Origin: Phallusia mammillata
Taxonomy: Eukaryota
DNA length: 64,000 nucleotides
Direction: 5' to 3'
Assembly (NCBI GenBank): GCA_965637545.1
Contig: OZ281500.1
Coordinates: forward strand, 2,170,001 to 2,234,000
Below are positions 14,734 to 59,546 of the stretch, piece after piece. A program made the translations under genes and the position numbers. Position 1 is the first letter of the stretch. Every line of letters starts with the position of its first letter. A model generated the notes under the pieces. It ran no database searches. It was not told the origin of the DNA and saw nothing but the letters and a program-made list of their open reading frames with translations.

Positions 14734-16178
14734 ATGGCCACCAAACCAGACTTGTCTCAGGTAGAACAATTCGAAAAATCCAATCTCAAAAAGACTGAAG
14801 TCCAGGAGAAGAATGACGGTGCCAAGCAAGGTATTGTCAAATTATTTTATCTAAACATTAAGAATTAATGAATCGGGAAAATTTTCCTAATGTGTCATAT
14901 TGTTACTTCAAACATTAATATAATCTCGTCGCTTGTTTATGTATTTTTGGGCATTTATATCCCATGCATACAAGTCTATTTATTACATTTTTTTCTGCTG
15001 AAAACGCATAATAGCTTCACAACATAGTTTAGGATTCGCACTGACTGTAGCTTAAGTTTAACACAGCATTTGTTGACGTGGCAAAAACCTCTCTTGTTTA
15101 ATTCTATTTTGCCACTTGTATGCCTTATGCTGGGTAAATAAACACTTTTATAAATGAATAACCGTTCGAAAATACGTTTATCGGACAATCATCCGAAGCT
15201 GCTGTTGCATGCTTTTAAGCTAAAACGTGTAATCTAATCTGACTTACTGAACGTATTCCAAAAACCCAACAATGTACGGCATGAAAAGCATATGCGACGA
15301 ATCTTGTTCAATCGTAGGATTGATGTAACATACATTTAATTTTCTGTCATGTCGTTTCACACCAAAACACGGTGATATGTTTGAAACAGTGATATGGATG
15401 CTTTCTTTTGCCCTTTGCTTCCGTGTCCTACCTGTGAAATTGACCTAAGATCTTCATAATAAAGGTAGATGTAAAACAGTGACGCCTGTCACATCACACC
15501 AAGAAATACCAGGAGTCGAATTACGACTTAGTAAATTTTTTTATTGTGTTTTAGCCTACGCCCACGAAAAGACTTTAACCCAATTGTCGCAATTTCCCAA
15601 GGATAACCTTAAGCACGTATCGACTGAAGAAAAGAGCAATCTTCCCACGCAAGAAGGTAACGATTTGTCGTTTTCTGCTCGTTGTGTACCAATAAAACTG
15701 CAACCATGCACGCTTTATCGGAACAAACACCGTTTTAGGGCTGTTTGCACGACCGACCATATGAGCTAAACGTATTTTAAAAGAAAACTCATTATTCAAT
15801 GGTCGTTAGTTGCAATGTGAATCAGTATGTGGTAATGTTTTCTGTGAAAACAGGTTTTTGGTAAAAATGTGGACATTTTGTGTCAATGTAACGTTTTGAA
15901 GTCTGTGAACACTTAAACCCGACCGTTAGGGGCTAAATTTATATCTGCACGATTCTTAAATTCAATTTTGAAACGCGTTGTAGCGACCCTTGTGCATTAT
16001 TTATCACCAAACGTCACCTGTTGTGTTGAGGTACTTTTTGTTCTTAGTCGGTGATACTCGTTCCGCGCACGTATAAATATTTGTATTTGCTTCTGGGCCT
16101 TTGTTTATGTTTCAGCAAAGAAGCTAATTACTTTTGCGTATTGCAGATATCGAGGCGGAGAAGAAAAGCGGCTTCTAG
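14734..16178 (+). CDS. TMSB: Two-repeat beta-thymosin (WH2 actin-binding), 3 coding exons, 76 aa
   Basis: Exons 14734-14830, 15555-15656, 16147-16178 (phase-1 GT..AG introns) give MATKPDLSQVEQFEKSNLKKTEVQEKNDGAKQAYAHEKTLTQLSQFPKDNLKHVSTEEKSNLPTQEDIEAEKKSGF, with LKKTE and LKHVST motifs. Confidence 0.88.
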
Positions 16179-17034
16179 AAGATTCGGCAATTTTCACTTA
16201 CAGTCCCACCTTTTTTGCGTTTCAAAACTTCAAACAAAAACTTTTCCTTGCTTCATTTGGCTGCAAATCATCGCCCACCCTTAATGGCAGTCTGTGTACT
16301 CCTGTGTATATCCCCCCGCATGTAACAAACCCTCTTACCCACCCAAATGTTGTTGTTTCCTTTTCCCCTCTGCTTTGTTGTTTGTCTTTTTGCTGTAGCA
16401 GCACTGGAATAATCAATAAAACTAAGGAAAATTCTGTATTCAATCAAAACTTTCATTCGTGTAACCATTTGTCAGAAACACGCCCTGTTGAACCTTTTAC
16501 ACCCACCTTGAAATATTTTGTTGCATCACCACATTCCCTGTGCCAAACCAGGCGGTTTTTCAACACTCGTAGCTCTACTTTTGATCGTCTTGCGCTTGTG
16601 CCCCCACTGGCGGATTGTAGAATGTAGCATTTTAGCCACGTGGTGCTTCAGTAAGCCCGCACTGGCAAATGCCGTTTAGTAAATCACACCCTAATTTATT
16701 CAGAAGCAACGCGTGGATAATAAAACAACAAACAACTTGTGATTGATGGTATTTTTCAAGTGTGACTTCTACTAAACGTCAACAAAAATGTTGTATGAGT
16801 TAGCAAGTGTATAAATTATGCCGGGCATTGTCCAAATGACTAAACCATGAAGAAATCCAGCTTTGCTTATCTAACTCTAATGATCTATTCTTTAAATACA
16901 GATGAAGTTTCAACAAAATTTAATTATTTGGCAAATAATAAAACCAACACAACTAACATTGCAACAATAAATTTGAAATGGTAATGCACAAATAACAAGA
17001 TACACTGCATTTAAATCAGTTGTAACCATGAATG

Positions 17035-17766
17035 CTATTCACTTTTGGTTCTGGAACTCGAGCTAGAGGAATCCCCATACACAGACGTACTTTCACTTTC
17101 TGTGGATTTCTGTTTTGAATTCATAGGGTTGTAGTCAAGGTCAGTTCCTTGCATAAGCTCAGGTGGTGGTTGTAGTAATGATGCTTTGGTGCTTCGGTGG
17201 ATCGAAAGCACAAGGGATGCCAAAACATATCCAAATGCAGCTGAACAACTAACTACTAAACCACGTAGCCATGGCCTTGTAATAAATGCATATTCAGACT
17301 CCCAAAGCATGTCACCAATAATAAGCAAGGAACCAATAATACCAGCAATAATTGCATACTTTTTTAAGGTCCAGCGTTTCCAGTTTAGGTATTGCTCGTG
17401 CTTTAATTTTGCATCAAATAAAGCTTGTTTTAGAATTTCATCATTTGGACAAGACTTTAAACCAGCATCAAAGCTTTTAATTGCCACATGGTACATTTCT
17501 GCAGATATTTCAGCCTGTCCTTTTCTGTAGTGACCCTTTGGCCAATCAGGGATTAAGCGAATTGTGGTTTCAGCATCTTTCACAGCAAAGAAATGCTGGT
17601 CTACTTTCAAAAATGCCAACGAACGGTTGCTGTATAGAACAGGGTTGGCAGGTTCCATAGAAATCCCTTCAGAATATTGTATGATTGCTTCTACATATTT
17701 TCCTTCCTTCATTAAGGCATTGCCTTTGGCTTTTATTGAAGCAACAGTGCTTACCTTGTCAGCCAT
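17035..17766 (-). CDS. TPR-repeat co-chaperone-like protein with two C-terminal hydrophobic segments, 243 aa, intronless CDS
   Basis: Three TPR units (KAKGNALMKEGKYVEAIIQYSEGI, LYSNRSLAFLK, WPKGHYRKG), then YAIIAGIIGSLLIIG and GLVVSCSAAFGYVLASLVL, then a Ser-rich tail. Confidence 0.85.
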   Translation of the reverse strand: MADKVSTVASIKAKGNALMKEGKYVEAIIQYSEGISMEPANPVLYSNRSLAFLKVDQHFFAVKDAETTIRLIPDWPKGHYRKGQAEISAEMYHVAIKSFDAGLKSCPNDEILKQALFDAKLKHEQYLNWKRWTLKKYAIIAGIIGSLLIIGDMLWESEYAFITRPWLRGLVVSCSAAFGYVLASLVLSIHRSTKASLLQPPPELMQGTDLDYNPMNSKQKSTESESTSVYGDSSSSSSRTKSE

Positions 17767-18167
17767 AGTTAAATATTACAGAAATAATAAAACATGAGGA
17801 TTCAATTAACTAGCTGATTCTGAAACACAATTATTGTGATTAAATTAAAAATGTTAATTGCATGAATGAGTAGTTAATGCATAAGCAGATTGTCATAGTA
17901 AGTTGTAACAAAAAGATATTATGAAACTATTGCATTTCAGTATGATGTTAAATTTAGGAGGCAGTTACTTAATTCAGACAGACAAATGACTGTTTTTTGA
18001 TATATTTTAACACCAGCACACTCTGTTTCACCACAAAACTAAAACCTGATTCTAATTCTTATTCCCATACACTAGTAATCCTAACATTAGGTATTTCTTA
18101 TTGTAAACGTTCTTGAGTTTTTCAAACAAATGACTGCCTTCCATATTCCAATATAGCACAGTTAAGT

Positions 18168-18662
18168 TTATGAAAGTTCACTTTTCATAACATCCAAATC
18201 AAATCTTAGCATATGCCAGTCTTCCACTTCAGTCAGGTTAAGAGCACCATGCCTCTTGTAAAAACTCATAGCAGGGTTTGTCTTCAAGCAAGCAAAACGC
18301 ATTTGGCTACAACCGGTTTCCAAGGCAACCTTGTTGACGGCTTTCAATAAGTCAAAACCGACTTTCTGATTTCTGTATGCCTCTTTTACACAGATATCTT
18401 CAAGGTACATGATTCGGCCGTTCCATGTTGAATACTGATAGACGTACACAGCGTAGCCGAGTAACGTCCCATCGTCTTTTTCTGCAACAAACGCGTAATA
18501 ATACGGCGGATCTTTTTCAAATCCATCTCTTTCAAGAACTTGCACAGTCATGTTGTTTTGGTCCGCCATGTTTTCGGTTTCGGCCAGCTCCATTATCATA
18601 TTCTGTATTTCCGGGCAATCGCATTTTTTAGCTTTGCGCACGGTGTATTTTAGTTCAGCCAT
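18168..18662 (-). CDS. SAT2: Diamine/thialysine N-acetyltransferase (SAT2-like GNAT), copy 1, 164 aa
   Basis: ATG at 18662 (MAELKYTVRKA); motifs LERDGF, YSTWNGRIMYLEDICV, RNQKVG, NPAMSFY. Orthology with vertebrate SAT2 is not established. Confidence 0.88.
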   Translation of the reverse strand: MAELKYTVRKAKKCDCPEIQNMIMELAETENMADQNNMTVQVLERDGFEKDPPYYYAFVAEKDDGTLLGYAVYVYQYSTWNGRIMYLEDICVKEAYRNQKVGFDLLKAVNKVALETGCSQMRFACLKTNPAMSFYKRHGALNLTEVEDWHMLRFDLDVMKSELS

Positions 18663-19148
18663 TGTCTTGCAAGTTATAATCTCGACAAAAAATAAAATAA
18701 ATGCAGCTAATGCCAATCACGGTGCATCCCCTATGAGAACTCTCATTATGCCGCTTTTGGCGCTATACCCTATGCTTTTAAATACAAAAGACAAGAGCGA
18801 TTTTATGGTTTACCGTAAACTATAAGTATTTAGTGAGATAACATACTTATGAATAAAAAACAGTTCTCTTGACCTATCTTGCTTTGTTACTTTTTTTTGC
18901 GTCACACTCACCTTCACTCGGTTAAAAAAGAGCGGAGACGACTGTGTCACGGATGAATTTTTGCAAATGTGAACATGAAGTTGTTAATGGAGGACATGTC
19001 TGAGATACGGGAATAGCGGACAGACGGAAATCGGGGTCTAAAAGACGAGAGAAACGGGATTACGGGTCAGGCGGGAAAAGTGACAAACTAAAAGACGGGA
19101 GAGGCGAGACTAGGTGAAAGTTCACATGCATTTCTTAAAGCGTTAGAC

Positions 19149-19497
19149 CAGTGGTTCCCAACCTTTCGTTGACCGTGGCCCCCTAAAAGTAACTTTTGGG
19201 CCTCATGGCCCCCTAAAAGTAACCTTGTAGAACCTGCGGCCCCCTTAAAAATGTAAATGTCAATCTCGTGTTGGAATTCGGTACTATTTCGGCTTTAAAC
19301 AGGTCGAATAGCGCAAACAAGAATCCGTTATCGTGAAAAACTGCAATACAGACAAATAGTATGTGAAATAGTCGATTAAATTAGGGAATAAAGTTAAAAA
19401 GAAAACGGCTTTTAGTGGGTGTTTCAGGTGAATCTACACCCGTGGCCCCCTGGAACACAGCTCGTGGGGGGCCAAGGGCCCTGGTTGGGAACCACTG
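19149..19497. mobile_element. hAT-type MITE
   Basis: TIRs CAGTGGTTCCCAACC / GGTTGGGAACCACTG; TSD CGTTAGAC at 19141-19148 and 19498-19505. Confidence 0.9.
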
Positions 19498-45304: not shown

Positions 45305-45461
45305 TATGAATAATCAGAACAGAGTATTTCCTGAAAAATGCAAAAACTCTTTGATAAAAGTGTATATCTTGCAAAACGTAATACCAAATTGCCCCAGAAC
45401 TATTACTAAGCCGACAATAGTAGTATATATTGTGGCTTTGACCCTCCAAGTATGCTCAATT

Positions 45462-45481
45462 ACTTCCGGTATTACTTCCGG
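45462..45481. promoter_or_regulatory. Tandem ETS/GABP-type motifs (ACTTCCGG x2, 12-bp period) in the TIR
   Basis: ACTTCCGG at 45462-45469 and 45474-45481, mirrored at 59484-59503. Motif match only. Confidence 0.4.
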
Positions 45482-45484
45482 TCT

Positions 45485-45790
45485 AACCCTATAGACGGTT
45501 AGACGTTAACCCTAAGTTTAGACCTTAAGTTTAGACCCTAAGTTTAGACCCTTAGTTTAGACGCTAACCCCAACTATAACCCTAACCCTAGGTTTAGACG
45601 GTAATAACCCTAAGTTTAGACCCTTAGTTTAGACGCTAACCCCAACTATAACCCTAACCCTAGGTTTAGACGGTAATAACCCTGAGTTTAGACCCTAACC
45701 CTAACCCTAACCCTAACCCTAACCCTAACCCCAACTATAACCCTAACCCTAACCCTAGGTTTAGACGGTAATAACCCTAAGTTTAGACGT
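45485..45790. repeat. Telomere-like CCCTAA/TTAGGG array with a 72-bp higher-order unit (left TIR)
   Basis: Six perfect CCCTAA units at 45693-45728, plus many CCCTAA/CCCTAG variants interleaved with GTTTAGAC; 72-bp period between 45549 and 45621. Confidence 0.92.
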
Positions 45791-46169
45791 TAATTTGAGA
45801 TGCTAATAATTCTAACTATAACCCTTTAGAGGGTAATGAATGTAATCCTATGGATGATAACCCTAACTGTTTGGTATGTATTAGGTAGTTTGTTGCCCAG
45901 ATTGATATAATCCTAAACGGTAAAAACTGCAAGATAGCATCATCTTTACGTTTGTGGTGAGCTGGCCTCGCTTGCGGAAATTGTTTCCTGAATTGCATTG
46001 CTATTGAGGGCAATTGGATGGGAACAATTGTACGCTAGGCAATCGTGTTTACCAGGCCCATCAAAGGGCTTGGCGAAGCCAATTAATTCGCGCCTGCAGA
46101 CCTGTTTTCTGACGTAATATTGCAAAGACGGTTTTGACGCAGTCAATTGCCAAGCGCTTCGGGGAGAAT

Positions 46170-46610
46170 TTATTCATCGAATAACGTTTGTACAACCAAG
46201 TCATTTGCTATATAATTGGACGAAAAAGAGTTTACAAAGTCTTCCATTGAGATGTTTCGTGATACAGCGAATACAAACAGAATTACATAATGTCCACAAA
46301 CCGAGGATTGAAAGCTTTGGAGTTGGATATTATTGAACGTCCACTGAGTGGCGTTGTCGGACATAAAGTTGTAAAATTCGGGAAAAATCATTAATCCGTA
46401 GCTGTCAAAATAGTAACCCTTGCCGCTGTCGTCGAAATAAGCAGCACACCAGTGAGTTCCGGGTTCATCGTGGTCATCGGTATTAAAAACGTACGCGGCC
46501 GGTGCATGAACCTCGATGCCGTTTATTTGATCTTTCGGATACACTCCGCGGAAGATGCGTCTGGCTTTTTTATCTTCGTTTAAAATGCGTTTTATGGTGA
46601 GAGAATCCAT
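46170..46610 (-). CDS. Adenain-like cysteine maturation protease (PRO), 146 aa
   Basis: Catalytic motifs GTHW, YYFDSYG, QLQSFQSSVCGHY; FRGVYP..Q and NTD motifs typical of Polinton proteases. Confidence 0.95.
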   Translation of the reverse strand: MDSLTIKRILNEDKKARRIFRGVYPKDQINGIEVHAPAAYVFNTDDHDEPGTHWCAAYFDDSGKGYYFDSYGLMIFPEFYNFMSDNATQWTFNNIQLQSFQSSVCGHYVILFVFAVSRNISMEDFVNSFSSNYIANDLVVQTLFDE

Positions 46611-47918
46611 TCAGGCGGAGTAGTCAAACAGCACTGTTCTGTCTTTGTTCAATTCCAAAATATTATCAAACTCTGCATAAACGATGACGTTCACCGTTGC
46701 TGTCAGCGGCGATGCGAATTGCAATTGCAAGCGTATGTTCCCCTTCTGCTTTAAACCAAAATGACTTCCTGAATTTAAGTCTGGCGAAAGATTGAAAGAA
46801 AAAAGCGCGAAACCGTTTTTGTAATCCTTGCGAGATATGTTGTTGCCGAGATCTTCAAAGAACTTGCCAGTGGCCGTATACATGGAGGTGTAACAACGCA
46901 TGAACAGATCTTCGTCAAAATTAGGCTTTAGGACTTTCGAAGGAACAGTTTTTGCTCCGATGTGGAGGGCCATGAAATTCACTTTGAAATTTTTAAAATT
47001 GAATGGATTTTTGGATCTCGTTCCATTGTAAGCGCTGTTTTCTACGAGTCCAACAACAACCCTTTTAGGAGCCTGTCCCAGAAATAGATTCTGTTGATTT
47101 AAATCCATGTTTCCCGCTCCAATGCTTAGAATTTTCACATCGGTTCGTCGTATCGGATACAAGGCGTTGGATTTGAGTAGCGCTTTCGCGTGTGCTATTT
47201 GAACGGCAGGGCTGATTTTCACTTTTCGGATGAACAATGACATATTTTCCACGCGAATTTTGTAGTTTGCGTCATCGGCGCACATCAAAGCAAATTCATC
47301 CGAATTGCGTAGAAAACGAAATTTCAAACCAACCCCGTTCAAAACATAACGGTCTTGGTTACACAAGTCAAGATGCGGTTTCGCGTAAAGATCTACTGTT
47401 TTGCTTTCGGCGATAAAGGCTTTGCGTTTGGCATATCCGCCGTTTGCCCCTGACATAGTATCGAATTTTCCCGCTGTATCTTTGTAATACAAACCGCTTG
47501 TTAGGTAAGATTGTTTCGCTGCCGGGCCAAATGACATCAGAGTCTCAATGTACGCCCTATAGCTGTAAGTGTTTGTTGCAGAGGTAACCAATTTATCGTT
47601 GACTGATAAATCCACTTGACTAAACAGACTATGCGCAAAATTGTTGACAACCGACACTTCCGCGTCATTCGCCAAAGCAGATCCATCCGCGTTGAGGACT
47701 TTGGCGCGGATTTGAAAATGGGTGTGAAACAAGTCTATGTACTCATCGGTTGTAGGTGAAATGTGGAATTCTATCGGAGATGCTTCTCCTATGGTGCTGA
47801 TGGGTAAGTATTCGCTAAAGTAACCTTCAGTACAGGTTGTATCTGTCGGAGGAATCATAAACAAATCCAACTCGCTTTTAACACATTCTGCTGACTTGGG
47901 GTGACAGGTCATTCTCAT
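46611..47918 (-). CDS. Major capsid protein (double jelly-roll, hexon-like), 435 aa (start may be 47912)
   Basis: Polinton MCP signatures ECVKSELDLF, NNFAHSLFSQVD, YSYRAYIETL, YVLNGV.L, FNFKNF, GFALFSFNLSPD, VIVYAEFDN. Confidence 0.93.
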   Translation of the reverse strand: MRMTCHPKSAECVKSELDLFMIPPTDTTCTEGYFSEYLPISTIGEASPIEFHISPTTDEYIDLFHTHFQIRAKVLNADGSALANDAEVSVVNNFAHSLFSQVDLSVNDKLVTSATNTYSYRAYIETLMSFGPAAKQSYLTSGLYYKDTAGKFDTMSGANGGYAKRKAFIAESKTVDLYAKPHLDLCNQDRYVLNGVGLKFRFLRNSDEFALMCADDANYKIRVENMSLFIRKVKISPAVQIAHAKALLKSNALYPIRRTDVKILSIGAGNMDLNQQNLFLGQAPKRVVVGLVENSAYNGTRSKNPFNFKNFKVNFMALHIGAKTVPSKVLKPNFDEDLFMRCYTSMYTATGKFFEDLGNNISRKDYKNGFALFSFNLSPDLNSGSHFGLKQKGNIRLQLQFASPLTATVNVIVYAEFDNILELNKDRTVLFDYSA

Positions 47919-48328
47919 CCACTAAAAATGTCACGTCCTTTCGTCCGCTTTGCCTTTTTGCGACTGGCTTTGGAAGGCGCGCGTTTACGTTTTTTATTGC
48001 GTTGTCTCGGTGGTTTTTGAAGAGCATCGGCCACCAAGCCGAAAACATTTTTTCCGGCTTCTTTACTTCTTTGAATGACTGCTTTTTTCGGATTGACGCC
48101 AGAAATTAAATCGCCCGCGAATTCGACACCCGACCTGAGCAGCTGTTTTCCAACGGTTTTAGCGCCACTCTTTAACAGAGGCACCACGCTTTTAGCCAAA
48201 CCCGCAAACAAATTCCCCAATCCGTGCCCGCGTTGATAGGAAGCTCCGTGAAACACGGGGTGGCCGTTACCCGCCTGATTCAAATAGTAGGTTTGATAAG
48301 GACAAGCTGTTGCACAAACACCGTTCAT
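47915..48328 (-). CDS. Conserved Polinton virion/core protein with an amphipathic helix and basic tail, 137 aa
   Basis: YYLNQAGNG...YQRGHGLGNLFAGLAKSVVPLLKSGAKTVGKQLL, then a K/R-rich C-terminus; recognised from memory as a conserved Maverick accessory family. Confidence 0.8.
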   Translation of the reverse strand: MNGVCATACPYQTYYLNQAGNGHPVFHGASYQRGHGLGNLFAGLAKSVVPLLKSGAKTVGKQLLRSGVEFAGDLISGVNPKKAVIQRSKEAGKNVFGLVADALQKPPRQRNKKRKRAPSKASRKKAKRTKGRDIFSG

Positions 48329-49053
48329 GATTTTATTGCACGCAAAGTCAAGTTCACCACAACGCTCCCACTTTCAAATGGCACTGGTTTTCCGGTTGAG
48401 TCTCGGATATCAATTGTAATAGAATCAAATACCTTTCTTTGTACCCTGAGAAATCGAAGTTTAGCGTATTGGCGATGAATTATTTTTGTAAAGTGCACCG
48501 AATCACTTCCGACGATGGCCAATAGAGGGGCATGCGCATCGCCGACCACTCGGCTCTCCAATATATCGCAATACACATAGATCAGATGTCTTCCTTGCGC
48601 CAAATCAAGCGGTCGAGTTGAGTAATGAGCGCCTTCTGATAAATACCCGGTATCAAAGCCTGAAATGGCGGCAAGCTTGGGGCTGAGTTTGATTTGATAA
48701 TTGTCGCCGATGCTTAAACGTAGTCGATTGGTGATGCTCAAGTAGCTCACATTTGATTCTGTTTCGGACAAGCTTAAAAGGGATCGAAAGCCCTGCACGA
48801 AGGATGCAGCTGTGTAATGACCCCCGGGAAGAACCAAGCGCTGTGTTCCACCCCTAGTTTTCATTTTGAGCCAAGCTTCTCCGTTCGCAAAAGTGTTCCA
48901 TGTTTTCGGTATAAAAATTTCGTCCAGAGCGAGTTCCCACTCGCCTTGTAGTGCAAACGACCTAGGCAAGCGGGTGGTGTATTTTGTCACTGTATTATCC
49001 GGATAAAAATCCAAGCTGCTATTGCTCGGCAGGGCTAGGTTGAATTGCTGCAT
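48325..49053 (-). CDS. Minor capsid protein (penton, single jelly-roll), 242 aa
   Basis: LPSNSSLDFYPDNT...LQGEWELALDEI and IYVYCDILE...VGD..APLL, ITIDIRD..G motifs. Confidence 0.9.
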   Translation of the reverse strand: MQQFNLALPSNSSLDFYPDNTVTKYTTRLPRSFALQGEWELALDEIFIPKTWNTFANGEAWLKMKTRGGTQRLVLPGGHYTAASFVQGFRSLLSLSETESNVSYLSITNRLRLSIGDNYQIKLSPKLAAISGFDTGYLSEGAHYSTRPLDLAQGRHLIYVYCDILESRVVGDAHAPLLAIVGSDSVHFTKIIHRQYAKLRFLRVQRKVFDSITIDIRDSTGKPVPFESGSVVVNLTLRAIKS

Positions 49054-49252
49054 TCCTTTTGAACTTCAGTTTCGGGTTCGGTAAGAGGTAACCTAAGCAA
49101 CTCGACAACAAGGATATCCAAAGCTGTTTTTCTGTTTGCTGAGGCGATGAAATATTGAATATGCTGGCAATCACAACACCATAAATTAGAATTATTTGGC
49201 AAATGAAGACAATTTTACCAGAAGATGCACAAATCTTAGTGACCACTGGCAT
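49019..49252 (-). CDS. Small two-TM membrane protein (conserved Polinton accessory type), about 77 aa
   Basis: IVFICQIILIYGVVIASIFNIS and LWISLLSSCLGYLLPNPKLK; likely ATG at 49252 (an upstream ATG at 49291 is also in frame). Confidence 0.75.
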   Translation of the reverse strand: MPVVTKICASSGKIVFICQIILIYGVVIASIFNISSPQQTEKQLWISLLSSCLGYLLPNPKLKFKRNAAIQPSPAEQ

Positions 49253-50267
49253 GTTGAACGCTTGACGCCGGGATCCAACTATCGAAATCATGCGAATAAT
49301 CTTTCCATTTAACGTATAATTTATTTCTTCTTCGCTTTATTATTTTTTCAATTTGAAATGTTTCCGGCGGAGTTATTTTTTGCAGTTCCGCTTCGTAAAA
49401 CGTCCCCTGCAAGAGTTCCCCGTTTAGATCTGATAGCGTGTAAGTTGGAGGTTCGCCGGGCTGCCGCTGTTTTACATGAAAATATTCTTCGCTCCACTGC
49501 GAAACGTACCCTTTTCCAAAAACCTTTTTGAACTTAGAAATTCTAACAGCATCACCCGGTTTAAATCGTTGTCGGGTCAAAGGTTCAGGATGGCCATAGA
49601 GTTTCTGGAAGACAATTTCCTGATTGCAGTCACTTACTTCCAATGGAGCTCGCCCGATTGCACGATGATAGGATGTATTATAGGAGTGAACAAGGTCGTC
49701 AAGTACATCAATATAGCGATGGGTGTTTTGCGCGGTCATGTATCGAAATAGCTTGCTTTTAATTGTGCGATTAAAACGTTCGACCACAGAAGCCTTTGTC
49801 TCGGCGTTAAAAGTACTGTAAAAACCAATGCCGTGCTTTTTTAACAAAGCTTGAAATGGTTTTGATATGAATTCACTGCCAAGGTCTGTTTGAAGTTTGC
49901 AAGGCTTTGTTTGTTCAAGGATGCTGGAAAAGCCTTTCACCACGGAGCTAGAAGTTTTATTGCGCAAAGGAATGACATACGCCACCTTTGAAAAAACATC
50001 AATGTTGGTCAACAGAAATTTTACATTATCGTTGAAACGAGCCAATCGCTTCATATCGATTAGATCGGCTTGAAAGAGTTGGCCCATTCCCCCTACAACC
50101 ACTCTCCGGCGAGGAAAGTGACGTCGCGCAGTTCTGTGCAAGGTATAAGCCCTGCTTCCTGAAAGCCATTGTTTCACATCGGATCGGTTTTGTTTGCTGT
50201 AGCGATGCAAGGCATCAACGCCGCCCAAACTCCCCGCCTGAGAGGGTGTGTAGTATATCTTTTCCAT
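49236..50267 (-). CDS. int: Retroviral-type DDE integrase with C-terminal chromodomain, 343 aa
   Basis: D (FQADLIDM), D (LQTDLGSEF), E (VVERFNRTIK); chromodomain FQIEKIIKRR...LYVKWKDYSHDFDSWIP; first ATG at 50267. Confidence 0.96.
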   Translation of the reverse strand: MEKIYYTPSQAGSLGGVDALHRYSKQNRSDVKQWLSGSRAYTLHRTARRHFPRRRVVVGGMGQLFQADLIDMKRLARFNDNVKFLLTNIDVFSKVAYVIPLRNKTSSSVVKGFSSILEQTKPCKLQTDLGSEFISKPFQALLKKHGIGFYSTFNAETKASVVERFNRTIKSKLFRYMTAQNTHRYIDVLDDLVHSYNTSYHRAIGRAPLEVSDCNQEIVFQKLYGHPEPLTRQRFKPGDAVRISKFKKVFGKGYVSQWSEEYFHVKQRQPGEPPTYTLSDLNGELLQGTFYEAELQKITPPETFQIEKIIKRRRNKLYVKWKDYSHDFDSWIPASSVQHASGH

Positions 50268-50881
50268 TAATAGGTTTTCCAACTTGGATTCGTTTTGGTA
50301 AAATTCAAGCGGTCTTTGTTTCCGACGATATATTCGGGTGTGTTGGTTTCTTTCAGGATTTCAGCAAATGTTTTCCAACCGATTGGATCTACATTCTTAC
50401 GCTTACGAAGAGCGTCTTGAACCAAGTCAACGATATTGCTTCCGGTGATCACTTGATCATTGTAGATCAGTTGTTTGTGCGCGTCCCAATTTATGTTGTT
50501 CTGCTTTAAGTGATCTAATAGTGATCGAGCCTTTTTCTGCAGAGCTTTGGGTGCGCTTGTTACAATCATTTCCGCTGCGTCATCGAATGGCTTTGCTATA
50601 GGGTGAGTTGTTTGCTCGGCGAGATTGTCCGTTTTCAGCGCTTTGTTTTGAATTGCAGGTGCGGGGTTGCGTACGATAGGGAGTGCCAGGGGCTTCTCGA
50701 GTTTCTGGTGAAACAGCAAATACTTTTCCAACACTTCCTGGTATTGCGAGATTTTTTCTTGATCCGTCAAATCGTTCCGATTTAAAATCTGTTCCATGTC
50801 AGCATCAAGTCGTGATAGTACTTTTGTGGTCGAATCGCGGTACATGCGTGGGTCAATGAGCATCATTTTTTGCACGGACAT
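50267..50881 (-). CDS. Conserved Polinton protein of unknown function, 204 aa
   Basis: LDADMEQILNR.DL...EK..Y...L.KYL and GSNIVDL...PIGWKTF...L..N.P...GN motifs recalled from Maverick accessory proteins; ATG at 50881. Confidence 0.8.
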   Translation of the reverse strand: MSVQKMMLIDPRMYRDSTTKVLSRLDADMEQILNRNDLTDQEKISQYQEVLEKYLLFHQKLEKPLALPIVRNPAPAIQNKALKTDNLAEQTTHPIAKPFDDAAEMIVTSAPKALQKKARSLLDHLKQNNINWDAHKQLIYNDQVITGSNIVDLVQDALRKRKNVDPIGWKTFAEILKETNTPEYIVGNKDRLNFTKTNPSWKTY

Positions 50882-51231
50882 CACTTAAACAACTTGCTTA
50901 TGCCTCCAACCAGACTCGGCAAAACACTTCCTAATAATGGCGCAAGAATTGCAGAAAGGAAGCCTCCTTTTTGGTTAATCAATTTCTTCTTTTTGAGAAA
51001 GGGGGTTTGTTTTTTGGCGAGACAACGAAGTTTTTGACGATAGGGTTTCAATCGTTTCTTTTCAACGGAACTTAGCGGTACGTTTCCTCGCAGGATATTG
51101 TCTGCGCACTCGCTCAAACAGTTCACCAGAGTCTTGTCACAGCCGTTTAAAATTAAATGACGAACTCTTGCGTCGCCTTTCGCCAGAGCTTGCAAAGCCT
51201 GCTTATGTTTTTGTATCAAGGTCGACGGCAT
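50881..51231 (-). CDS. Basic core-type (pVII-like) Polinton protein, 116 aa
   Basis: K/R-rich; CLSECADNILRGNVPL and INQKGGFLSAILAPLLG with a hydrophobic C-terminal helix. Confidence 0.8.
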   Translation of the reverse strand: MPSTLIQKHKQALQALAKGDARVRHLILNGCDKTLVNCLSECADNILRGNVPLSSVEKKRLKPYRQKLRCLAKKQTPFLKKKKLINQKGGFLSAILAPLLGSVLPSLVGGISKLFK

Positions 51232-51268
51232 GCTGTAAAATGACGCACAAACGCAAATGCATTCGAAT

Positions 51269-51880
51269 TTAAGTCTTTGGAATGTAAACGTAATGGGTTT
51301 CGTCCGGAAACGCTCCGGTGCGTAACCGCAAGTTTTCCGGTGTCTCTTGACGCAAGTCTAGTAATAGATATCCATGAGGAATTCCTGTTGATTCGCGAAA
51401 CGCTTCGATTAGGGCCTTTGTATTCCCCGGATACATTTGCCGAGCTAGAACTTGTATTTGAGAACTATCCCGTGGATTTTTAAATAAAACAATATAATGA
51501 GCGTTTAACGATATGGTTCTATGCTCGCGGCCCTTGTGGAAAAGGTTTTGAATCAGGTAAACAACTGTCAACTTTCTATGATGCGATCCCCTGGTAAATA
51601 GATTAGAGATTTTTTCATTGCACTCTGTCATCAAATCGTCGATAACACACAAAGAATCTTGTTTGAGATTATTTAATTCATTTAATCCTTCTTTAAACTG
51701 TACATCGGGAAAATTGCGAAACGAATCTTGAAATTCACCGTAAAACCAATAAATGTTTTTCGGAACGGGATCAAATACTTGTTTTATATTTTGTATGAGT
51801 TTAAATGCGAATACGCTTTTCCCTGATTGACTAGGACCCGATATCACAATGGTTGAAGGATGTTTAAATTGAGCACACAT
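51269..51880 (-). CDS. A32/FtsK-HerA-like genome packaging ATPase, about 203 aa
   Basis: Walker A GPSQSGKS, Walker B CVIDDLM, RGSHHRKLTVVYLIQNLF, RTISLNAHYIVLFKNPRD; first ATG at 51880. Confidence 0.95.
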   Translation of the reverse strand: MCAQFKHPSTIVISGPSQSGKSVFAFKLIQNIKQVFDPVPKNIYWFYGEFQDSFRNFPDVQFKEGLNELNNLKQDSLCVIDDLMTECNEKISNLFTRGSHHRKLTVVYLIQNLFHKGREHRTISLNAHYIVLFKNPRDSSQIQVLARQMYPGNTKALIEAFRESTGIPHGYLLLDLRQETPENLRLRTGAFPDETHYVYIPKT

Positions 51881-51939
51881 GTCAAAATCCTTTCGAAGCG
51901 AACACAAAATGAGAGAAGAAATAGCTATACATCGCCATT

Positions 51940-52451
51940 TTATAGGCGCGATTCTCGAAACAGTTTTTCTACATTTTTGATTTCCCTTGAATCGATTGCG
52001 TGAGATTCAAAGCATGATGTATTGGAAATAACAGGTTTCAAGTATGACACCGGGGCAAACAGAATGTTTTCTTTGAAAAGCACTTCCGCATTCATTAATT
52101 TGGATTCGGTCGTTATTTCATCGACACGGGCCTGGATTTGAGAATTTGGATCCGAACAGTAAATTATTTGCACACGGAAATAGCCGTTGTTTGCCGATTT
52201 CGGAAATGCCAGAAGATATGGTAGACCTTCGAACAGGTAGGTTACGAGTTGTTTCAGTTGGTCGCAGTCGAGGTACAATCCTTTTCCCAAACGCACACTC
52301 AGCGTTGCACAGCGTAAGCGGGTATCTGCAAAAAACAATCAGTCACTCCCCTGACAATCCTCGGGGTAAGCACAAAGCATTTACCTTCCACTACATGTCG
52401 ACGAGTGATTTCAGCGAAAATAGTTTTCCCCGAACGAACTTGACGATGCAT
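51940..52451 (-). CDS. Orphan viral protein, two exons (52451-52385 and 52325-51940), 150 aa
   Basis: Removing a 59-nt GTAAAT...CTGATTGTTTTTTGCAG intron joins MHRQVRSGKTIFAEITRRHVVE to DTRLRCATL...FRESRL in frame; no family recognised. Confidence 0.6.
52326..52384 (-). other. Predicted spliceosomal intron (59 nt) in the viral orphan gene
   Basis: Donor AAG|GTAAAT, branch-like TGACTGAT, acceptor TTTTTTGCAG; phase 1 on both sides. Confidence 0.65.
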
Positions 52452-52585
52452 GCTGTTGCAATTTAATGTTCGGGGTCGACATGAAAACCTCTCCCTTTTT
52501 AAGCATTGCCGCAAAACCACACGTGTTTTGTTTGTTTTTTGGTTTCGGCAGGCAAGTCCCGACATGTGGCGCAATACAGTGACGT

Positions 52586-53401
52586 ATGTATTGCGCAATT
52601 AAAACTGAATTGACCAATACAAACAACCCTAAACAATTGCACCACGATGTCGCAAATTGCAAGGCTCTCTCGTCGTTTCCAGCCGCTGTGGATTTTTTCC
52701 CCCATGCCATGCCTTTAAGTGATCCCCACGGTTCAGTGCAATCTGTACCCAGTAAAAGCATCATGGCAAAGAATCTTGCAAGCAATGATATTATTCTTAA
52801 CTCAGACGAAGATTTTCAACCGCTGAACAAAAGTTTGCGGCGCCGCAAAACAAAGGCGATAGTGATTAGTGATAGTGGCGACAGTCCGAAACAATTGTCT
52901 AAACTAAAAAAAACCCAAAAGGTAATACGCAAAGAACGAAAGAAGAGAACATTACGCAAAAACCAAATTGATAAAGAAAAAATGACTGAAGCCAAGAGAA
53001 AGTTGGAATTCTCTCCAAAAAGCAAACGACTTATGGAAAAGTATGATTTAGATAGCGACGAAGGGAATCCATTCATCCGTTCTCACCGACCTGCGACGTT
53101 AATCTCATGCAGAAGCAAGGAAAAACCTACCAAGCATGTTTACAGGCCAGTCAGACAGATTGAGAGGCGCTACCTCGAACATCTTTTAGGAGAGTCTTAT
53201 TACAATCAAGAAGATGATCTTAGCGCAGGAACAAGTGGGCTCAATGCCGAGGCATCAAATCAAGCTGCGAATGCACCAGGGTTAGAAGATTCAGAAGATG
53301 AACAACTCATGGTCGACTTTTGTCAGAGGAAAGAAGCTACTGAAAACGCCGTGTTGGAATTAGTGAATCAAGTGGGAAAGACTTTCTCCAAAGCCAATTG
53401 A
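52586..53401 (+). CDS. Orphan viral protein, basic centre and acidic C-terminus, up to 271 aa (start may be 52709 or 52763)
   Basis: Long open frame; NLS-like LRRRKTK and RKERKKRTLRK; acidic DSEDE; lies upstream of polB in the rightward unit. Confidence 0.65.
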   Translation: MYCAIKTELTNTNNPKQLHHDVANCKALSSFPAAVDFFPHAMPLSDPHGSVQSVPSKSIMAKNLASNDIILNSDEDFQPLNKSLRRRKTKAIVISDSGDSPKQLSKLKKTQKVIRKERKKRTLRKNQIDKEKMTEAKRKLEFSPKSKRLMEKYDLDSDEGNPFIRSHRPATLISCRSKEKPTKHVYRPVRQIERRYLEHLLGESYYNQEDDLSAGTSGLNAEASNQAANAPGLEDSEDEQLMVDFCQRKEATENAVLELVNQVGKTFSKAN

Positions 53402-53544
53402 TGTGTTCATTTCACATCCAATCAAATGTGTATTGCTTGTAATCTTATAATCACGTGTATAACAATGTAACACTTGTATTCTGCATCCAATATATAATGC
53501 ATTTATTTCATACCTATTTTGTATTTCATTTAGGTCGATAGGCA

Positions 53545-56500
53545 ATGTCTTATAGCTGCCCTAATTGCTTTCGGATTTTCCGGACTGAAGCATTGTTAAA
53601 CTCTCATTTGCTACTGCACGAAGCAAGAGCTCATGCAACATGTGAATATTGTAATGGAGTATTCAGATACCCGCGCGATGTCCAACGTCATAAAACGACC
53701 TGTCGCGGTCAGCCAAAATACAGCTGTCAATACTGTGATAGTTCGTTTCCACGGTTAAACGATTTGGAGCATCATGTTTCCGAAAATCACCCGATATCGT
53801 CACGTCCGCAACAGAATTCTTTTGCAACAGATTTTGACCAACCGCGGATTATAGCCGGAACGGACGAAGCTCCTATATTCTTAGATGAAGAATTACAAGA
53901 GTTTTATTCTAGACACTGGGATTCCATTAGAACAATGCATCACATAGGACAGCCGGTAGTAGATAGTTTTAATTTCACATTTGACGACTTTGATCATTTG
54001 GAACAATTGCGAAAGTATTTATTAGAATTAATACCATACCGCGCAAAAATTTCTTTAAGCGTTGGTGCCATTCTGCGTCATCAAGAAACTGCACAACTAC
54101 GTTACTATCATTCTAATTCGGCAACACCTGCAATTGACGAGCCGATTCCAATCAATACCCCCGAGGATGTCGAGCGATTTATTGCCATGGTCAGAGAGTT
54201 GGATCTGCTGGAAATCGGAAAACTGCAACGACCTGACACCAAAAACACCGTCGAAATTATTACAAACATTACATATTATGTTTACAAGTGTGGACGTCAG
54301 TTGATTGGTGGACGAGTAACGGAACTGCCGCCTTACATCCGCCGCAACAAATCAATCGTGTGTATGCTGCGGAACAGCCAAGGTCGTTTGCACAAAGACA
54401 ATTTATGTTTTTTCCGATGCCTTCAGCTTTGGTTTCAGGACAGGCAAGTTAACTGTGAAATGATAGACTTGTATTCACGCTGGTCTCGTGAAAGAGTGGG
54501 CGATTTCGCCGGTGTTCAACTCTGTGATATTTACGCTTTGGAACAGTTGTTTAAAATCAACATTTCGGTTTTTGAACTGAAGAAATTCAACGGAGAAGTC
54601 GTTTCCAGACTCGTGCAACGCTCACCGTCTTTGTTGATGAAACAAACCTATCCCACCTGCAATTTAAATCTGTACGAAAATCATTTTAGTCTGATTCGAA
54701 ACTTCAACCAATTTTCCAATTCATTTGCATGCAAGTGTTATGGGACGAACTTCAAGAATTTTTATGAATTAAATCGACATGAGAAAAAATGCACAAACAG
54801 CGTCAAAAAAGTGTATCCCGCTGGCTCCTACCAATGTTCAAAAACTGTGTTTGAAAAATTGGAATTTGCAGGAATTGATGTGAGCGCTGTAGATCGTTTC
54901 TACGAATTTCGCGCCGTTTTTGATTTTGAGAGCTATTTGAATTCAGAAAATCTGCCGTCCAAAACCATCCAAACGGAATACACACAACGACACAAACCGC
55001 TGTCGTTTTGCGTAAGTTCCAACATACCAGGCTTTGAAAGCGCCTATTTTCAAGTGACGGATGGAAATTCTCAAGGGTTGATTGACAAATTAACGAATCG
55101 CCTCCTTGCAATGTCAAACCAAGCGTATAATCTTCTACAACCAAAATATAAAAGCTTACTGGAACAAGTTGATGACCTCTTACAAGCCCAGAGTTTAAAG
55201 GAGTCTGTTGAAGTAAAGCAATTGCCCCTGTACCAGATTAGACGGGAACTAGAAACACATCTCATGCAACTCCCTGTAATTACTTTTAACGGCGGCCGAT
55301 TTGATATGAATCTTATCAAGCCGTATTTGATCATGTCTTTGCAACAACAAGGTCAAAGAATTAGCGTTGTTAAAAAGGATCAAAGCTTTATGTGTTTGAG
55401 TACAGAGTCACTGCGGTTTCTAGACATCAGCTATTATCTGGCAGCGGGCACGTCGTACGAACAATATTTGAAAGCCTACGATTGCACTCAAATGAAAGCT
55501 TCGTTTCCGTATGAATACATAACGACGCTGGAACGTCTCCAGGAAAGAGAATTACCTCCACATAAAGAATTCTACAGTCACATTAAAGGAAGCAATATTT
55601 CCGACGAGGCTTACAAGAAGTGCCTAAACGTGAGTTGTTTTTCAAAAACATGTAAATTATTTTGTTTTTAATTTTCTAAAGAACAGTGTTTGTATTAGGT
55701 TTGGAAAGAAAAGGGAATGACATCTCTTCGAGACTACTTGGAGTATTATAATACGCTGGATGTATTACCCTTCCTGGAAGCGTTGCAAAAACAGTTTGAT
55801 TTGTACAAATCCCAGAATTGCGACATGTTCAAAGAAGCCATATCGATCCCTGGTCTAACGGCAAAAATCATGTATCGGAATTTAAAACACGGGGAAGTTT
55901 TTATGCTTTTTGGTGAAAAAAACAAGGACTTGGTTGAACTAATAAGACATCAGGTTGTGGGAGGTCCTGCGATAATCCATTCTCGGTATTGTGAAAGAGA
56001 CATCACAATCATCCGAGCTCTTGAAAATGGAAAACTACCTTGTCAATCCGTGATTGGATACGACGCAAATAGCTTGTACACTAAAGTAAGTATCGATATG
56101 GGGTTGTTTTCATTCGACCCAAATTCGATCTCATGTTTTGTGTTTAATCTTCTCAGTGTCTGATGATGGAAATGCCTACCGGTTTTGGAATTCGTCGACA
56201 ACGTAATAACCAGTTTAAACCAGAGTTCAGAAACTATCACAGTCAAATTGCTGTCGAATTTTTGGAATGGGAATCTCATCGCTCAGGTCAGACGATTTAC
56301 CATCAGTTCAACTCCAAAGAAGCTGTTTTGGGTTCAAAACGAGTTCGCGTAGATGGGTATACGTCATCGGGGAATGTATACCAATTTCACGGTGAGTTAT
56401 AAATTGCAAGCAAAATGTGGGCCCCCACAGAACTTCAATTACTTCCTTTTCCCGTGGATATAGAAATATCCAACGATGTTTTCCTGCCAAATTTTATCCA

Positions 56501-58548
56501 TTTATTGAACAAAAAGAAACATAAAAAAGCGCTATGCTAGTTTGATGTTGTAAGCGAATTGTTTCCTTGAACTATAAAAATAGTCATTTACTTGCAAAGT
56601 TCAATGAGAAATGACTTCCTTTTCGTTTGGACAAGGAAACATCCAAAGATCGGTGCGTTTTCGTGCCAAGTTTAACGCTTTTATTAAACTTACTTTACAA
56701 GTTTGGTGTTGCAATCGTTTACGTCACAAAGCGAGCTGGTAGTTTTCCAACAAATTGTCCACGCTATGGGGCCCTGGTAATACAATTAGGCCAACAATTT
56801 CCGCAATGCTGCAAGCGCGAACAGCGGTCCTATACATGTTCACTAAACTTTGTATTTTCCCAAATGCATTAATTTAAGAATTAAATGTAGTGAAATATAA
56901 AATAAACTTTGTTGAAAAAAACAACAAAACAAATCTGGTATTGCTCTTATATAATACAGAGATTAACACTTAGTTTGCTTTGCCTTGTTAGTTAAAAAAT
57001 AATTTGCTTGTTTGGTGATTTACAAACTATAAAATGAAATCGTTAACACTTTGAACTTGAACTACAGGATGTTATTACCACGGCTGTTGTAAATGTTTCA
57101 AAGATGACACTTACAACAAAAAGTTGAAGAAGACCATGTGGCAATTACGACAAGACACTCAACAAACCACCAATTACCTTCGGTCTCTCGGTTACACGGT
57201 GATTGAAATGGCGGAATGCGCTTGGAAACATCAGAAAAGAAACGACTTCCAGGTCAAACACTTTCTCAACAAACTCAATCTTTTTCATAACACCAAAGGC
57301 AAAATGTCGGAAGGCGAAATAATCGCTGATATAAAAAACGATCGACTTTTTGGTTTGGTCGAGTGTGACATTTCTACTCCTGAACATTTGAAAGCCAAGC
57401 TCGCTCAGTTTCCGCCAATATTCAAAAATACAAATGTGGGCCGAGATGACATTGGACCGCACATGAAAGCATACGCGGAAAAACACAACATTTTGAAAAA
57501 ACCGAGACGAATGTTAATCAGCAGTTTCCATGGGACAAAAATATTGCTCACTTCACCTCTCGTGAAATTTTACATGACGCACGGCTTGACTGTAGACAAA
57601 ATTCATCAATTCATCGAGTTTAAACCTGTTGCTTGCTTCGAAGGCTTTGGTGAAAAAATAGCAAATGACAGAAGGCTTGGAGATACATCTCCGAACTACA
57701 CGATTTTAGGGACGTTGGCTAAACTGCAAGCAAACTCGGCATTTGGACGGACCATAACGAACGTCGAAAAACACAAAAACATAAAATATGTGGACGCCCC
57801 AAAAGCGGCAATGTGTGTGGCCAATCGTCGTTTTAGCAGCATCAATTGTTTAGGGAATGGGCTATATGAGGTGGTAAGCCGAAAGGCTGTGTGCAAATTC
57901 AATTACCCTTCCCAAATCGGCTTTTTTATCTTTTGTTACGCAAAGCAAAGATTGTTGGCATTTGTTTATGACATGCTAGATAAATACCTTGAACGTAACA
58001 AATATCAAATTGTATTAATAGACACAGATTCTTGTTATCTTAGTTTATCTAGCAATAATTTAGACAGTTGTGTTAAAGCTCACATGCTAACTGAATTTTA
58101 CCACGAGTATGGAGAATGGTTTTTGCGCCAGTACTGCCCTGCTCATTTCAATGACTTCCTGAAAGCAAAGAAAGGGGGCTTTCCCTGGGATCTTCTGCCT
58201 TGTTGTCTAAAACAATATGCTCACGATCGTAGGTCAGCGGGGTTGTGGAAAATTGAATTCCAAGGCCATGGCATTGTTGCATTGTGTTCAAAAACGTATT
58301 TTGCATTCGGCGACTCGAGTCAAAAATTTTCTTGCAAAGGGGTGAATCGAAGACAAAATGAAATGAGAAAAGAGAACTATTTCAATGTTTTAAGATCCCA
58401 AATATCGCACACAACTAAAAATGTTGGTTTTATGGTTAAGCGCTCCGAAATTTATACGTACAATCAATACAAGTCGGGTTTAACCTACTTCTACGGAAAG
58501 CGCATTGTTCAAGGCGACGGAATTTCAACCGCGCCCAATGAACTTTGA
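53545..58548 (+). CDS. polB: Protein-primed family B DNA polymerase (pPolB), 4 exons, 1395 aa, with N-terminal zinc fingers, OTU-like domain and Vsr-like insertion
   Basis: Exons 53545-55629, 55699-56085, 56157-56391, 57068-58548 total 4188 nt in one frame. ExoI VFDFESY, ExoII TFNGGRFD, ExoIII YNTLDV, motif A YDANSLY, B KLQANSAFG, C IDTDS, SKTY, KGV. Confidence 0.93.
55630..55698 (+). other. polB intron 1 (69 nt, phase 0)
   Basis: AAC|GTGAGT...TTGTATTAG|GTT; restores YKKCLN-VWKEKGM; contains an in-frame TAA at 55669-55671. Confidence 0.9.
56086..56156 (+). other. polB intron 2 (71 nt, phase 0)
   Basis: AAA|GTAAGT...TTTAATCTTCTCAG|TGT; restores motif A context YDANSLYTK-CLMMEMPTG. Confidence 0.92.
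56392..57067 (+). other. polB intron 3 (676 nt, phase 1)
   Basis: CACG|GTGAGT...CTTGAACTACAG|GA; restores VYQFHG-CYYHGC of the Vsr-like insertion. Confidence 0.9.
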
Positions 58549-58620
58549 GCAAACAATCATTTGTGTTTTCAAGAACATGTACATATCGCAATTTTTTCGC
58601 ATGACTTTGTAAACTCTTTT

Positions 58621-59546
58621 GTGGACGTTCAATAATATCCAACTCCAAAGCTTTCAATCCTCGGTTTGTGGACATTATGTAATTCTGTTTGTATTCGCTG
58701 TATCACGAAACATCTCAATGGAAGACTTTGTAAACTCTTTTTCGTCCAATTATATAGCAAATGACTTGGTTGTACAAACGTTATTCGATGAATAAATTCT
58801 CCCCGAAGCGCTTGGCAATTGACTGCGTCAAAACCGTCTTTGCAATATTACGTCAGAAAACAGGTCTGCAGGCGCGAATTAATTGGCTTCGCCAAGCCCT
58901 TTGATGGGCCTGGTAAACACGATTGCCTAGCGTACAATTGTTCCCATCCAATTGCCCTCAATAGCAATGCAATTCAGGAAACAATTTCCGCAAGCGAGGC
59001 CAGCTCACCACAAACGTAAAGATGATGCTATCTTGCAGTTTTTACCGTTTAGGATTATATCAATCTGGGCAACAAACTACCTAATACATACCAAACAGTT
59101 AGGGTTATCATCCATAGGATTACATTCATTACCCTCTAAAGGGTTATAGTTAGAATTATTAGCATCTCAAATTAACGTCTAAACTTAGGGTTATTACCGT
59201 CTAAACCTAGGGTTAGGGTTAGGGTTATAGTTGGGGTTAGGGTTAGGGTTAGGGTTAGGGTTAGGGTTAGGGTCTAAACTCAGGGTTATTACCGTCTAAA
59301 CCTAGGGTTAGGGTTATAGTTGGGGTTAGCGTCTAAACTAAGGGTCTAAACTTAGGGTTATTACCGTCTAAACCTAGGGTTAGGGTTATAGTTGGGGTTA
59401 GCGTCTAAACTAAGGGTCTAAACTTAGGGTCTAAACTTAAGGTCTAAACTTAGGGTTAACGTCTAACCGTCTATAGGGTTAGACCGGAAGTAATACCGGA
59501 AGTAATTGAGCATACTTGGAGGGTCAAAGCCACAATATATACTACT
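58621..59546. repeat. Right terminal inverted repeat, 926 bp
   Basis: Mirror of 45419-46344; contains (TTAGGG)6 at 59237-59272. Confidence 0.95.
58622..58795 (+). pseudogene. Start-less copy of the last 57 codons of the protease gene inside the right TIR
   Basis: Translates WTFNNIQLQSFQSSVCGHY...VVQTLFDE*, identical to the protease C-terminus; lacks the catalytic His and Asp. Confidence 0.9.

Follow-up and report, generated by a model that had tools for sequence, protein, structure and literature searches.

A host-grade splice acceptor before the polymerase gene of an ascidian Maverick element is a likely site of spliced-leader trans-splicing

The window analyzed here, a 64,000-nt stretch of the genome of the ascidian Phallusia mammillata (GCA_965637545.1, contig OZ281500.1, positions 2,170,001 to 2,234,000), carries an entire Maverick/Polinton element, which is young and transcribed. 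Based on the results of this study, the element possesses one splice acceptor of host grade, which is located 11 nt before the ATG of its type-B DNA polymerase gene (polB) and is probably used for spliced leader (SL) trans-splicing, and the other sites claimed as acceptors are likely not acceptors. A sequence-only reading of the window had proposed that the element makes polycistronic pre-mRNA and resolves it with the host machinery at AG sites just before many of its start codons. This proposal is retained for the polymerase gene, where SL addition is likely, and given up for most of the starts, where scores are low, the sites are not conserved in related families or consist of codons, and RNA contigs run across. 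For the most part, the broad idea of trans-splicing at all starts reflects the pattern of codons that overlap.

The acceptor of the polymerase gene

The plus strand of the element carries a 271-aa open reading frame (ORF) and the polymerase gene, with the following features.

52586 to 53401, plus strand: 271-aa ORF, start perhaps at 52709 or 52763
53491 to 53498, plus strand: TATA-like box TATATAAT, the basis of the alternative that the polymerase gene has its own promoter
53510 to 53533, plus strand: strong 3' splice acceptor, 11 nt upstream of the ATG of the polymerase; SL is likely joined here by trans-splicing, at the junction 53533/53534
53540 to 53541, plus strand: second AG, 3 nt upstream of the same ATG, which may serve as a minor acceptor
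53545 to 58548, plus strand: probable type-B DNA polymerase in four exons (53545-55629, 55699-56085, 56157-56391, 57068-58548), with N-terminal C2H2 fingers (Pfam)

All seven AG sites of the sequence-only reading were found as it gave them, with the G of the AG at 52453, 51890, 51233, 50884 and 47922 (minus strand) and at 53533 and 53541 (plus strand). The acceptor model was trained on introns of the host PRP8 gene, of which 45 were called by homology and 39 kept; the six calls discarded before training comprised three wrong junctions and three from a duplicated segment. A position-by-position matrix was noisy and a pooled matrix was therefore used, and both rank the polymerase site first and the U, ATPase, capsid and 204-aa sites below all host sites. 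Host acceptors were compared by leave-one-out scoring. The polymerase acceptor (53533) has a pooled score of 5.0, which places it in the top 0.3% of the 1180 AGs of the element and at or above 26 of the 39 host acceptors. The four cis acceptors of the element confirmed by RNA score 1.25 to 3.07, and the second AG of the polymerase gene (53541) scores 1.35. The share of plus-strand positions equally close to any host-grade AG is 1.4%.

The acceptor is unpaired, as would be expected of an SL-receiving gene: a donor scan over 52452-53530 found no host-grade cis donor upstream of it. The earlier statement that no strong donor was found in this region was confirmed for the plus strand (best score 2.4, host q10 2.5); on the minus strand, one candidate at 53090 scores 6.5, and the RNA shows no joint from it. 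Moreover, a coding upstream exon at the junction is ruled out by an in-frame stop right before the ATG of the family A polymerase. Neither AATAAA nor ATTAAA occurs between the stop of the 271-aa ORF and the polymerase acceptor.

The capsid genes of the genome fall into three groups at approximately 100, 70 and 47% identity, here called families A, B and C, and the polymerase of family B is 48% identical to that of family A. The family B counterpart of the acceptor, TTTTTTCAG, keeps the distance of 11 nt to the ATG of the polymerase and scores 7.7 (in both of the two loci with a readable start); it is preceded by a G+T-rich stretch (73% G+T) and followed by a second AG, 4 nt before the ATG. Among all claimed sites, only that of the polymerase has a counterpart of retained position and strength in another family.

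The host spliced leader

The 16-nt SL exon of Ciona, as given in the accessible text of PMC7986045, followed by GT and with up to two mismatches, has 4618 matches in the genome versus 38 for the reversed control, and the exact leader with a GTAAGC donor occurs in a 553-bp tandem array. Because of this excess and of the array with its donor, we conclude that the host has SL trans-splicing machinery. The combination of a donor and the Ciona Sm site pattern gave no signal (21 matches versus 40 in the control). The presence of this machinery and the SL-like acceptor of the polymerase together make it likely that host trans-splicing has been borrowed for this gene.

Exact copies of the 16-nt leader are also dispersed in the genome (loci L089-L103), with unrelated flanks in 15 of 15 loci, one of them at 2940-2955 of the window; these are perhaps relics of reverse-transcribed leaders. 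The closest named relatives of a host gene in the window are from Clavelina (58%) and Ciona (51%).

RNA contigs at the polymerase start

Four assembled runs of one study (X1-X4) were compared over 46350-58600 of the window, with 16000-19150 as the host control region. The contigs are unstranded, minor forms are dropped from them and 32 of the 66 pieces were listed; that the runs are RNA was a guess, which the spliced joints support. The three polymerase introns (55630-55698, 56086-56156 and 56392-57067) are joined in all four runs, and the reading frame is unbroken across these GT-AG introns. Family B has a donor and an acceptor at the first intron position only, with an open frame over the other two, and the family C polymerase is an open frame of 1256 aa.

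The contigs of the polymerase start at 53533, 53533, 53532 and 53531 in the four runs, i.e., 1-3 nt before the junction, and carry no loose letters. A comparable pattern was found at a host TPR gene, which has a strong and seemingly unpaired acceptor (score 4.8) 53 nt upstream of its ATG and a GNAT gene close upstream. Its contigs in X1-X4 start at 17820, 17821, 17819 and 17821, which is 1, 2, 0 and 2 nt before the acceptor junction, with two extra unaligned letters at the 5' end of one contig. The GNAT contigs stop 28-77 nt short of the TPR acceptor AG and none spans it. The two genes (17035-18662, minus strand) resemble an operon with no spacer that is divided at AG 17821-17820. Two host 5' ends lacking such an acceptor scatter over 44 and 84 nt in the same runs, and the contig starts of the polymerase match the acceptor-type pattern of TPR, not these scattered ends.

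As side observations from the control region, the GNAT-TPR unit is duplicated in tandem with decayed TPR copies, and another spliced host transcript lies beside the TPR gene (16145-16800), with a 1-nt mismatch to the assembly at 16446 in all four runs.

Alternatives for the polymerase start

Several observations weigh against SL addition at the polymerase. SL letters were found on the element contigs in none of the four runs; the TPR control contigs show at most two unaligned letters as well, which indicates that the contigs barely retain 5' ends. The X4 contig begins with the genomic T at 53531 where a leader would give A, and unmatched ends do get clipped. With the box TATATAAT, transcription would be expected to start around 53521-53523, and identical contig ends would result if 8-12 nt were lost from such a start. 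The TPR control is one gene whose trans-splicing is itself inferred, and all four runs are unstranded assemblies from a single study, taken as RNA by a guess that the spliced joints support. The acceptor model is based on 39 homology-called introns of one gene, all with cis acceptors. Among 2000 shuffles of the 60 nt before the polymerase start (composition kept), 29 reached the observed score, which falls short of significance when six tests are allowed for. A matching site is absent from family C, where several small exons in a row precede the polymerase, and no contig bridging the 271-aa ORF and the polymerase was found in X1-X4.

Some of these points would fit transcription of the polymerase from its own TATA promoter (53491) with an untranslated leader of 22-24 nt. 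In that case the acceptor would be unused, or used only on run-through RNA, and no gene of the element would need the SL. A CCAAT motif is followed by TATATAAT at -32 from a TA dinucleotide, and in Ciona, according to the accessible text of PMC4691747, TATA boxes lie at -32 to -29 and CA and TA are the commonest starts. The genomic T in X4 and the missing SL letters agree with such a promoter, as does the absence of RNA cover just upstream; judging from depth bins, the cover there seems to end near 53350 or earlier. However, family B keeps the acceptor at equal spacing, and no TATA-like box was found in it 35-80 nt before the polymerase ATG. In the second family-A copy, TATATAAT is replaced by TATATGAT, with one letter changed, which may be a later mutation, and the contig starts agree with the acceptor-type host control. 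A promoter of its own is regarded as rather unlikely for the polymerase, though as a serious alternative.

The other mechanism suggested earlier, in which the element would supply a short common leader exon for cis splicing to alternative acceptors as in adenovirus, is highly improbable. The element does use the spliceosome, with four cis introns, a donor-like CAG/GTCGGT (score 6.5) is present at 53090 on the minus strand, and small exons precede the family C polymerase. However, neither a joint into 53534 nor one from 53090 was found in any of the four runs, with a depth of 11-14 over the polymerase start, and the plus strand lacks a host-grade donor in 52452-53530. No joint to a common leader was seen at any start with RNA cover, which excludes the ATPase, 116-aa and 204-aa starts. 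Only a common leader of roughly the length of the SL could have escaped notice.

The region before the family C polymerase contains approximately six tandem units of about 260 bp (L133:2110-3830, minus strand; L051:4970-5430), followed by further small exons, and each unit has the appearance of one small exon together with an intron (GTAAGT ... TTTTTAG).

The minus-strand genes and their claimed sites

The minus strand carries ten ORFs, listed here in their order from the U gene to the protease. The names based on position were taken from the gene order in the accessible text of PMC8097293.

51940 to 52451, minus strand: U gene, two exons (52451-52385 and 52325-51940), first of the minus-strand block
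51880 to 51269, minus strand: packaging-type ATPase, weak P-loop matches only in Pfam
51231 to 50881, minus strand: 116-aa gene, named PM by position only
50267 to 50885, minus strand: 204-aa gene, named PZ by position only
49236 to 50267, minus strand: integrase with chromodomain (Pfam PF00665 and PF00385)
47915 to 49291, minus strand: 90-aa, 242-aa and 137-aa ORFs with overlapping stops and starts; 242-aa minor capsid and 137-aa PW by position only
47918 to 46611, minus strand: probable major capsid; assigned to atlas clusters at 0.98 in which 14-30% of members carry PF21738, with a recognition value below the bar of the tool
46170 to 46610, minus strand: adenain-type protease (PF00770)

The gaps between genes of the element range from -35 to +59 nt, and from the 116-aa gene onward from -35 to 0 nt. 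Any AG within 12 nt upstream of the start was found in 9 of the 12 element genes, as compared with 50% of 387 other ATGs (P=0.07), and a host-grade AG in two (polymerase and 116-aa), as compared with 2.8% of the same ATGs (P=0.044). Taken together, the claimed AG sites are not beyond chance. When scored against the host model, only the polymerase site was strong. The 116-aa site was borderline (score 0.99, reaching 6 of the 39 host acceptors), and the remaining four lay at or below the weakest host acceptor, with scores of -1.4 for U, -3.0 for ATPase, -5.6 for capsid and -10.5 for 204-aa, each exceeding 0 of the 39. The numbers of shuffles out of 2000 reaching the observed score were 142 for 116-aa, 146 for U, 457 for capsid, 534 for ATPase and 1189 for 204-aa. 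The ATPase and 204-aa sites are AAG, while the 39 host acceptors comprise 28 CAG and 11 TAG.

At the U gene, a TATA-like box at -52 and CATT at -16 (52453 to 52503, minus strand) recur in family B with the same spacing (TATAAA at -51, CATT at -16), where the claimed AG (52454-52453) is absent. The ATPase gene (51269 to 51944 on the minus strand with its upstream motifs) is preceded by TATAAA at -64, which overlaps the U stop codon, and by TCATTT 34 nt on; its claimed AAG (51890) is weak and is absent in families B and C. In family C, in which the ATPase is the first gene, TATAAA at -46 and TCATTT are present and no AG is found. The combination of TATA and CA(T/C)T precedes 3 of the 12 element starts versus 0.3% of the 387 ATGs, and 2.2% and 1.1% of all ATGs in the family B and C loci, respectively; it was defined after the sites were seen and carries weight mainly at the U gene. 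Its spacing of 32-36 is longer than in Ciona, and in the ATPase and 116-aa genes it shares letters with stop codons.

The 116-aa gene (50881 to 51273 with its upstream motifs) has, besides its borderline CAG at 51233, a TATA-like box that contains the ATPase stop codon in families A and B. In family B, an AG occurs at another offset, 4 nt before the ATG, in three of six loci (score -0.13). A second SL site at this gene is conceivable though doubtful, with a promoter as the alternative. What was claimed as the acceptor of the 204-aa gene is AAG, the terminal Lys codon of the 116-aa gene, followed by the TGATG overlap, and the final residue of the 116-aa protein is Lys in all four elements compared. 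The capsid site (47922) lies, as was noted before, inside the last codons of the preceding gene, namely the Asp-Ile-Phe-Ser codons of the 137-aa gene, and the family C homologue retains DIF with no AG. The capsid and 204-aa "acceptors" are thus codons of the preceding gene, and the weak claimed sites are likely by-products of codons and promoters.

As to the RNA, the U intron is joined in one of the four runs (X1) and is also present in family B. The integrase cover extends over the integrase start, with its onset at about 50430-50480, within the 204-aa ORF. The listed contigs span the integrase, 90-aa and 242-aa starts, and distances to contig ends suggest that X1 contigs also span the start of the 137-aa ORF and continue for at least 15 nt past the capsid site. 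Over 50849-52075 the cover is nil in X2-X4 and next to nil in X1, a blank that weighs neither for nor against the sites, and the ATPase, 116-aa and 204-aa starts were judged by their sequence. Near the onset of the integrase cover (50430-50510), CTTAAAG (50510) and CATAAATT (50495) are found on the minus strand, and this region is a possible internal promoter inside the 204-aa ORF.

A minus-strand polycistron resolved by the SL at each start (U, ATPase, 116-aa, 204-aa and capsid), perhaps only in an active element, is quite improbable in view of these results. It could be favored by the narrow gaps between genes, since spacers are absent from Ciona operons in the accessible text of PMC1488885, by the borderline 116-aa site with its family B counterpart, and by a TTTTCAG before the family B capsid gene; three starts have no RNA cover, and minor forms are lost from contigs. 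However, four of the five sites fall at or below all host acceptors and two of these are AAG, two sites consist of codons of the upstream ORF, and five of the ten minus-strand starts never had a claimed site. Only one of the ten, the borderline one, has an acceptor that passes, and five starts are spanned by contigs, including that of the capsid in X1 as deduced above. In the other families, one of 12 starts passes in family B (the polymerase) and none of 18 in two family C elements (nine each).

Proposed expression of the element

A plus-strand transcript would start upstream and cover the 271-aa ORF and the polymerase, the former being the likely upstream cistron of a two-gene unit. The 16-nt host leader would then probably split this transcript at the unpaired AG, as in the spacer-less operons of Ciona. 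The minus-strand block would start at TATA-type promoters, at the U gene, probably at the ATPase, and internally upstream of the integrase. The overlapping ORFs farther down the block may be read from run-through RNA with no gene-by-gene SL addition. Reinitiation at the stop-start overlaps is our guess for their translation.

A further-reaching scheme is that capping of the polymerase mRNA depends wholly on the SL, as in a spacer-less operon, that the 116-aa and family B capsid sites come into use in an active element, and that the core introns were gained, so that expression has been rebuilt on the terms of the host. It is put forward only tentatively.

The element and its relatives

The boundaries of the element are as follows.

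45419 to 59546: entire Maverick/Polinton (14.1 kb) with AGTAGT...ACTACT ends, flanked on either side by GACAAT, the 6-bp target-site duplication
45419 to 46344: left terminal inverted repeat (926 nt), containing a telomere-like (TTAGGG)n block
58621 to 59546: right terminal inverted repeat, with 100% complementarity to its left counterpart

The element is a Maverick by its ends, integrase and protease: it has the (AGT)2//(ACT)2 ends with a 6-bp duplication characteristic of these elements, and its integrase (PF00665 and PF00385) and protease (PF00770) matches are above the Pfam cut-off. The second copy is flanked on both sides by a different duplication, CAAATT. Pfam gave no polymerase domain match on the polymerase exons of the window, and PF03175 was weak (E=0.005) on the family C homologue; DANSLY, KxxxNSxFG and DTDS, spotted by eye, would be motifs of a protein-primed type-B polymerase. 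The capsid had no match among PDB sequences, and no relative was found in the viral contigs scanned with it.

Other observations concern the structure and copies of the element. The terminal repeats contain 72-bp units with telomere-like (TTAGGG)n runs (45499-45806 and 59159-59466), and the end of the protease gene sits in the inverted repeat (46170-46344) and is therefore repeated behind the polymerase (58621-58795). Family C (L038 and L043) differs in gene order, with the ATPase block first and the polymerase and U gene converging on it, and its homologue of the 242-aa protein has an in-frame insertion. Contigs of X1 and X2 that are 90-95% or 95-99% like the 271-aa ORF (52756-53255) point to a further diverged family-A relative in those samples. 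The copy C1 was considered as the expressed copy and dropped: all 11 RNA letters checked match C1, yet the differences between RNA and window are far fewer than those between C1 and window (227).

Comparison with known systems

How the tightly packed genes of Mavericks/Polintons are expressed is scarcely described in the accessible literature examined, and a young, transcribed, spliced and likely SL-capped element offers a direct handle on this question. If the reading of the polymerase acceptor is true, a virus-like element exploits host SL trans-splicing; if expression has indeed been rebuilt on the terms of the host, a lineage of animal DNA viruses would be tied to hosts with SL trans-splicing. 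Neither SL addition to Maverick genes nor use of the host SL by a virus-like element was found in the accessible text of the papers covered (including PMC8502044, 10.1101/2023.08.22.554363 and PMC11155486), most subscription papers and supplements lying outside this set.

The closest parallel is provided by the SL operons of Ciona. The same 16-nt leader is present in the host studied here, and the accessible texts of PMC1488885 and PMC7986045 likewise place an unpaired acceptor near the start codon, with the upstream gene ending near it; in the element this upstream gene also lacks AATAAA, and the contig signature equals that of the host GNAT-TPR pair. Unlike in Ciona operons, the target is a gene of a mobile virus-like element, for which we infer both the leader joining and the two-gene transcript.

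In adenovirus, late and E2 genes are expressed by leader splicing. The element shares with adenovirus a related module of polymerase, protease and capsid and the use of the host spliceosome. Unlike in adenovirus, a cis-joined common leader was not seen in the RNA of the element, and most starts have no real acceptors.

The Tor retroelements of Oikopleura (PMC4402516) are tunicate virus-like elements in which a downstream gene is expressed through cis splicing or an internal promoter. They are LTR retroelements, unlike Mavericks, and leader trans-splicing is not mentioned in the accessible text of that paper.

The Mavericks of vertebrates (PMC8097293) and nematodes (10.1101/2022.07.12.499685), as far as the accessible texts describe them, likewise have terminal inverted repeats, (AGT)2//(ACT)2 ends and a 6-bp duplication, and share with the ascidian element the integrase and protease genes and the probable polymerase, ATPase and capsid genes, as well as the orders ATPase-x-x and integrase-x-x-capsid-protease. 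Their core genes are described there as intronless, which is a described trait and not a defining one for Mavericks as a whole. The ascidian element differs from them in that its ATPase group is in line with the integrase group while the polymerase points away, and in the unpaired acceptor before its polymerase. It also has three spliced introns in the polymerase and one in the U gene, and the confirmed polymerase introns depart from the intronless picture of the vertebrate and nematode elements.

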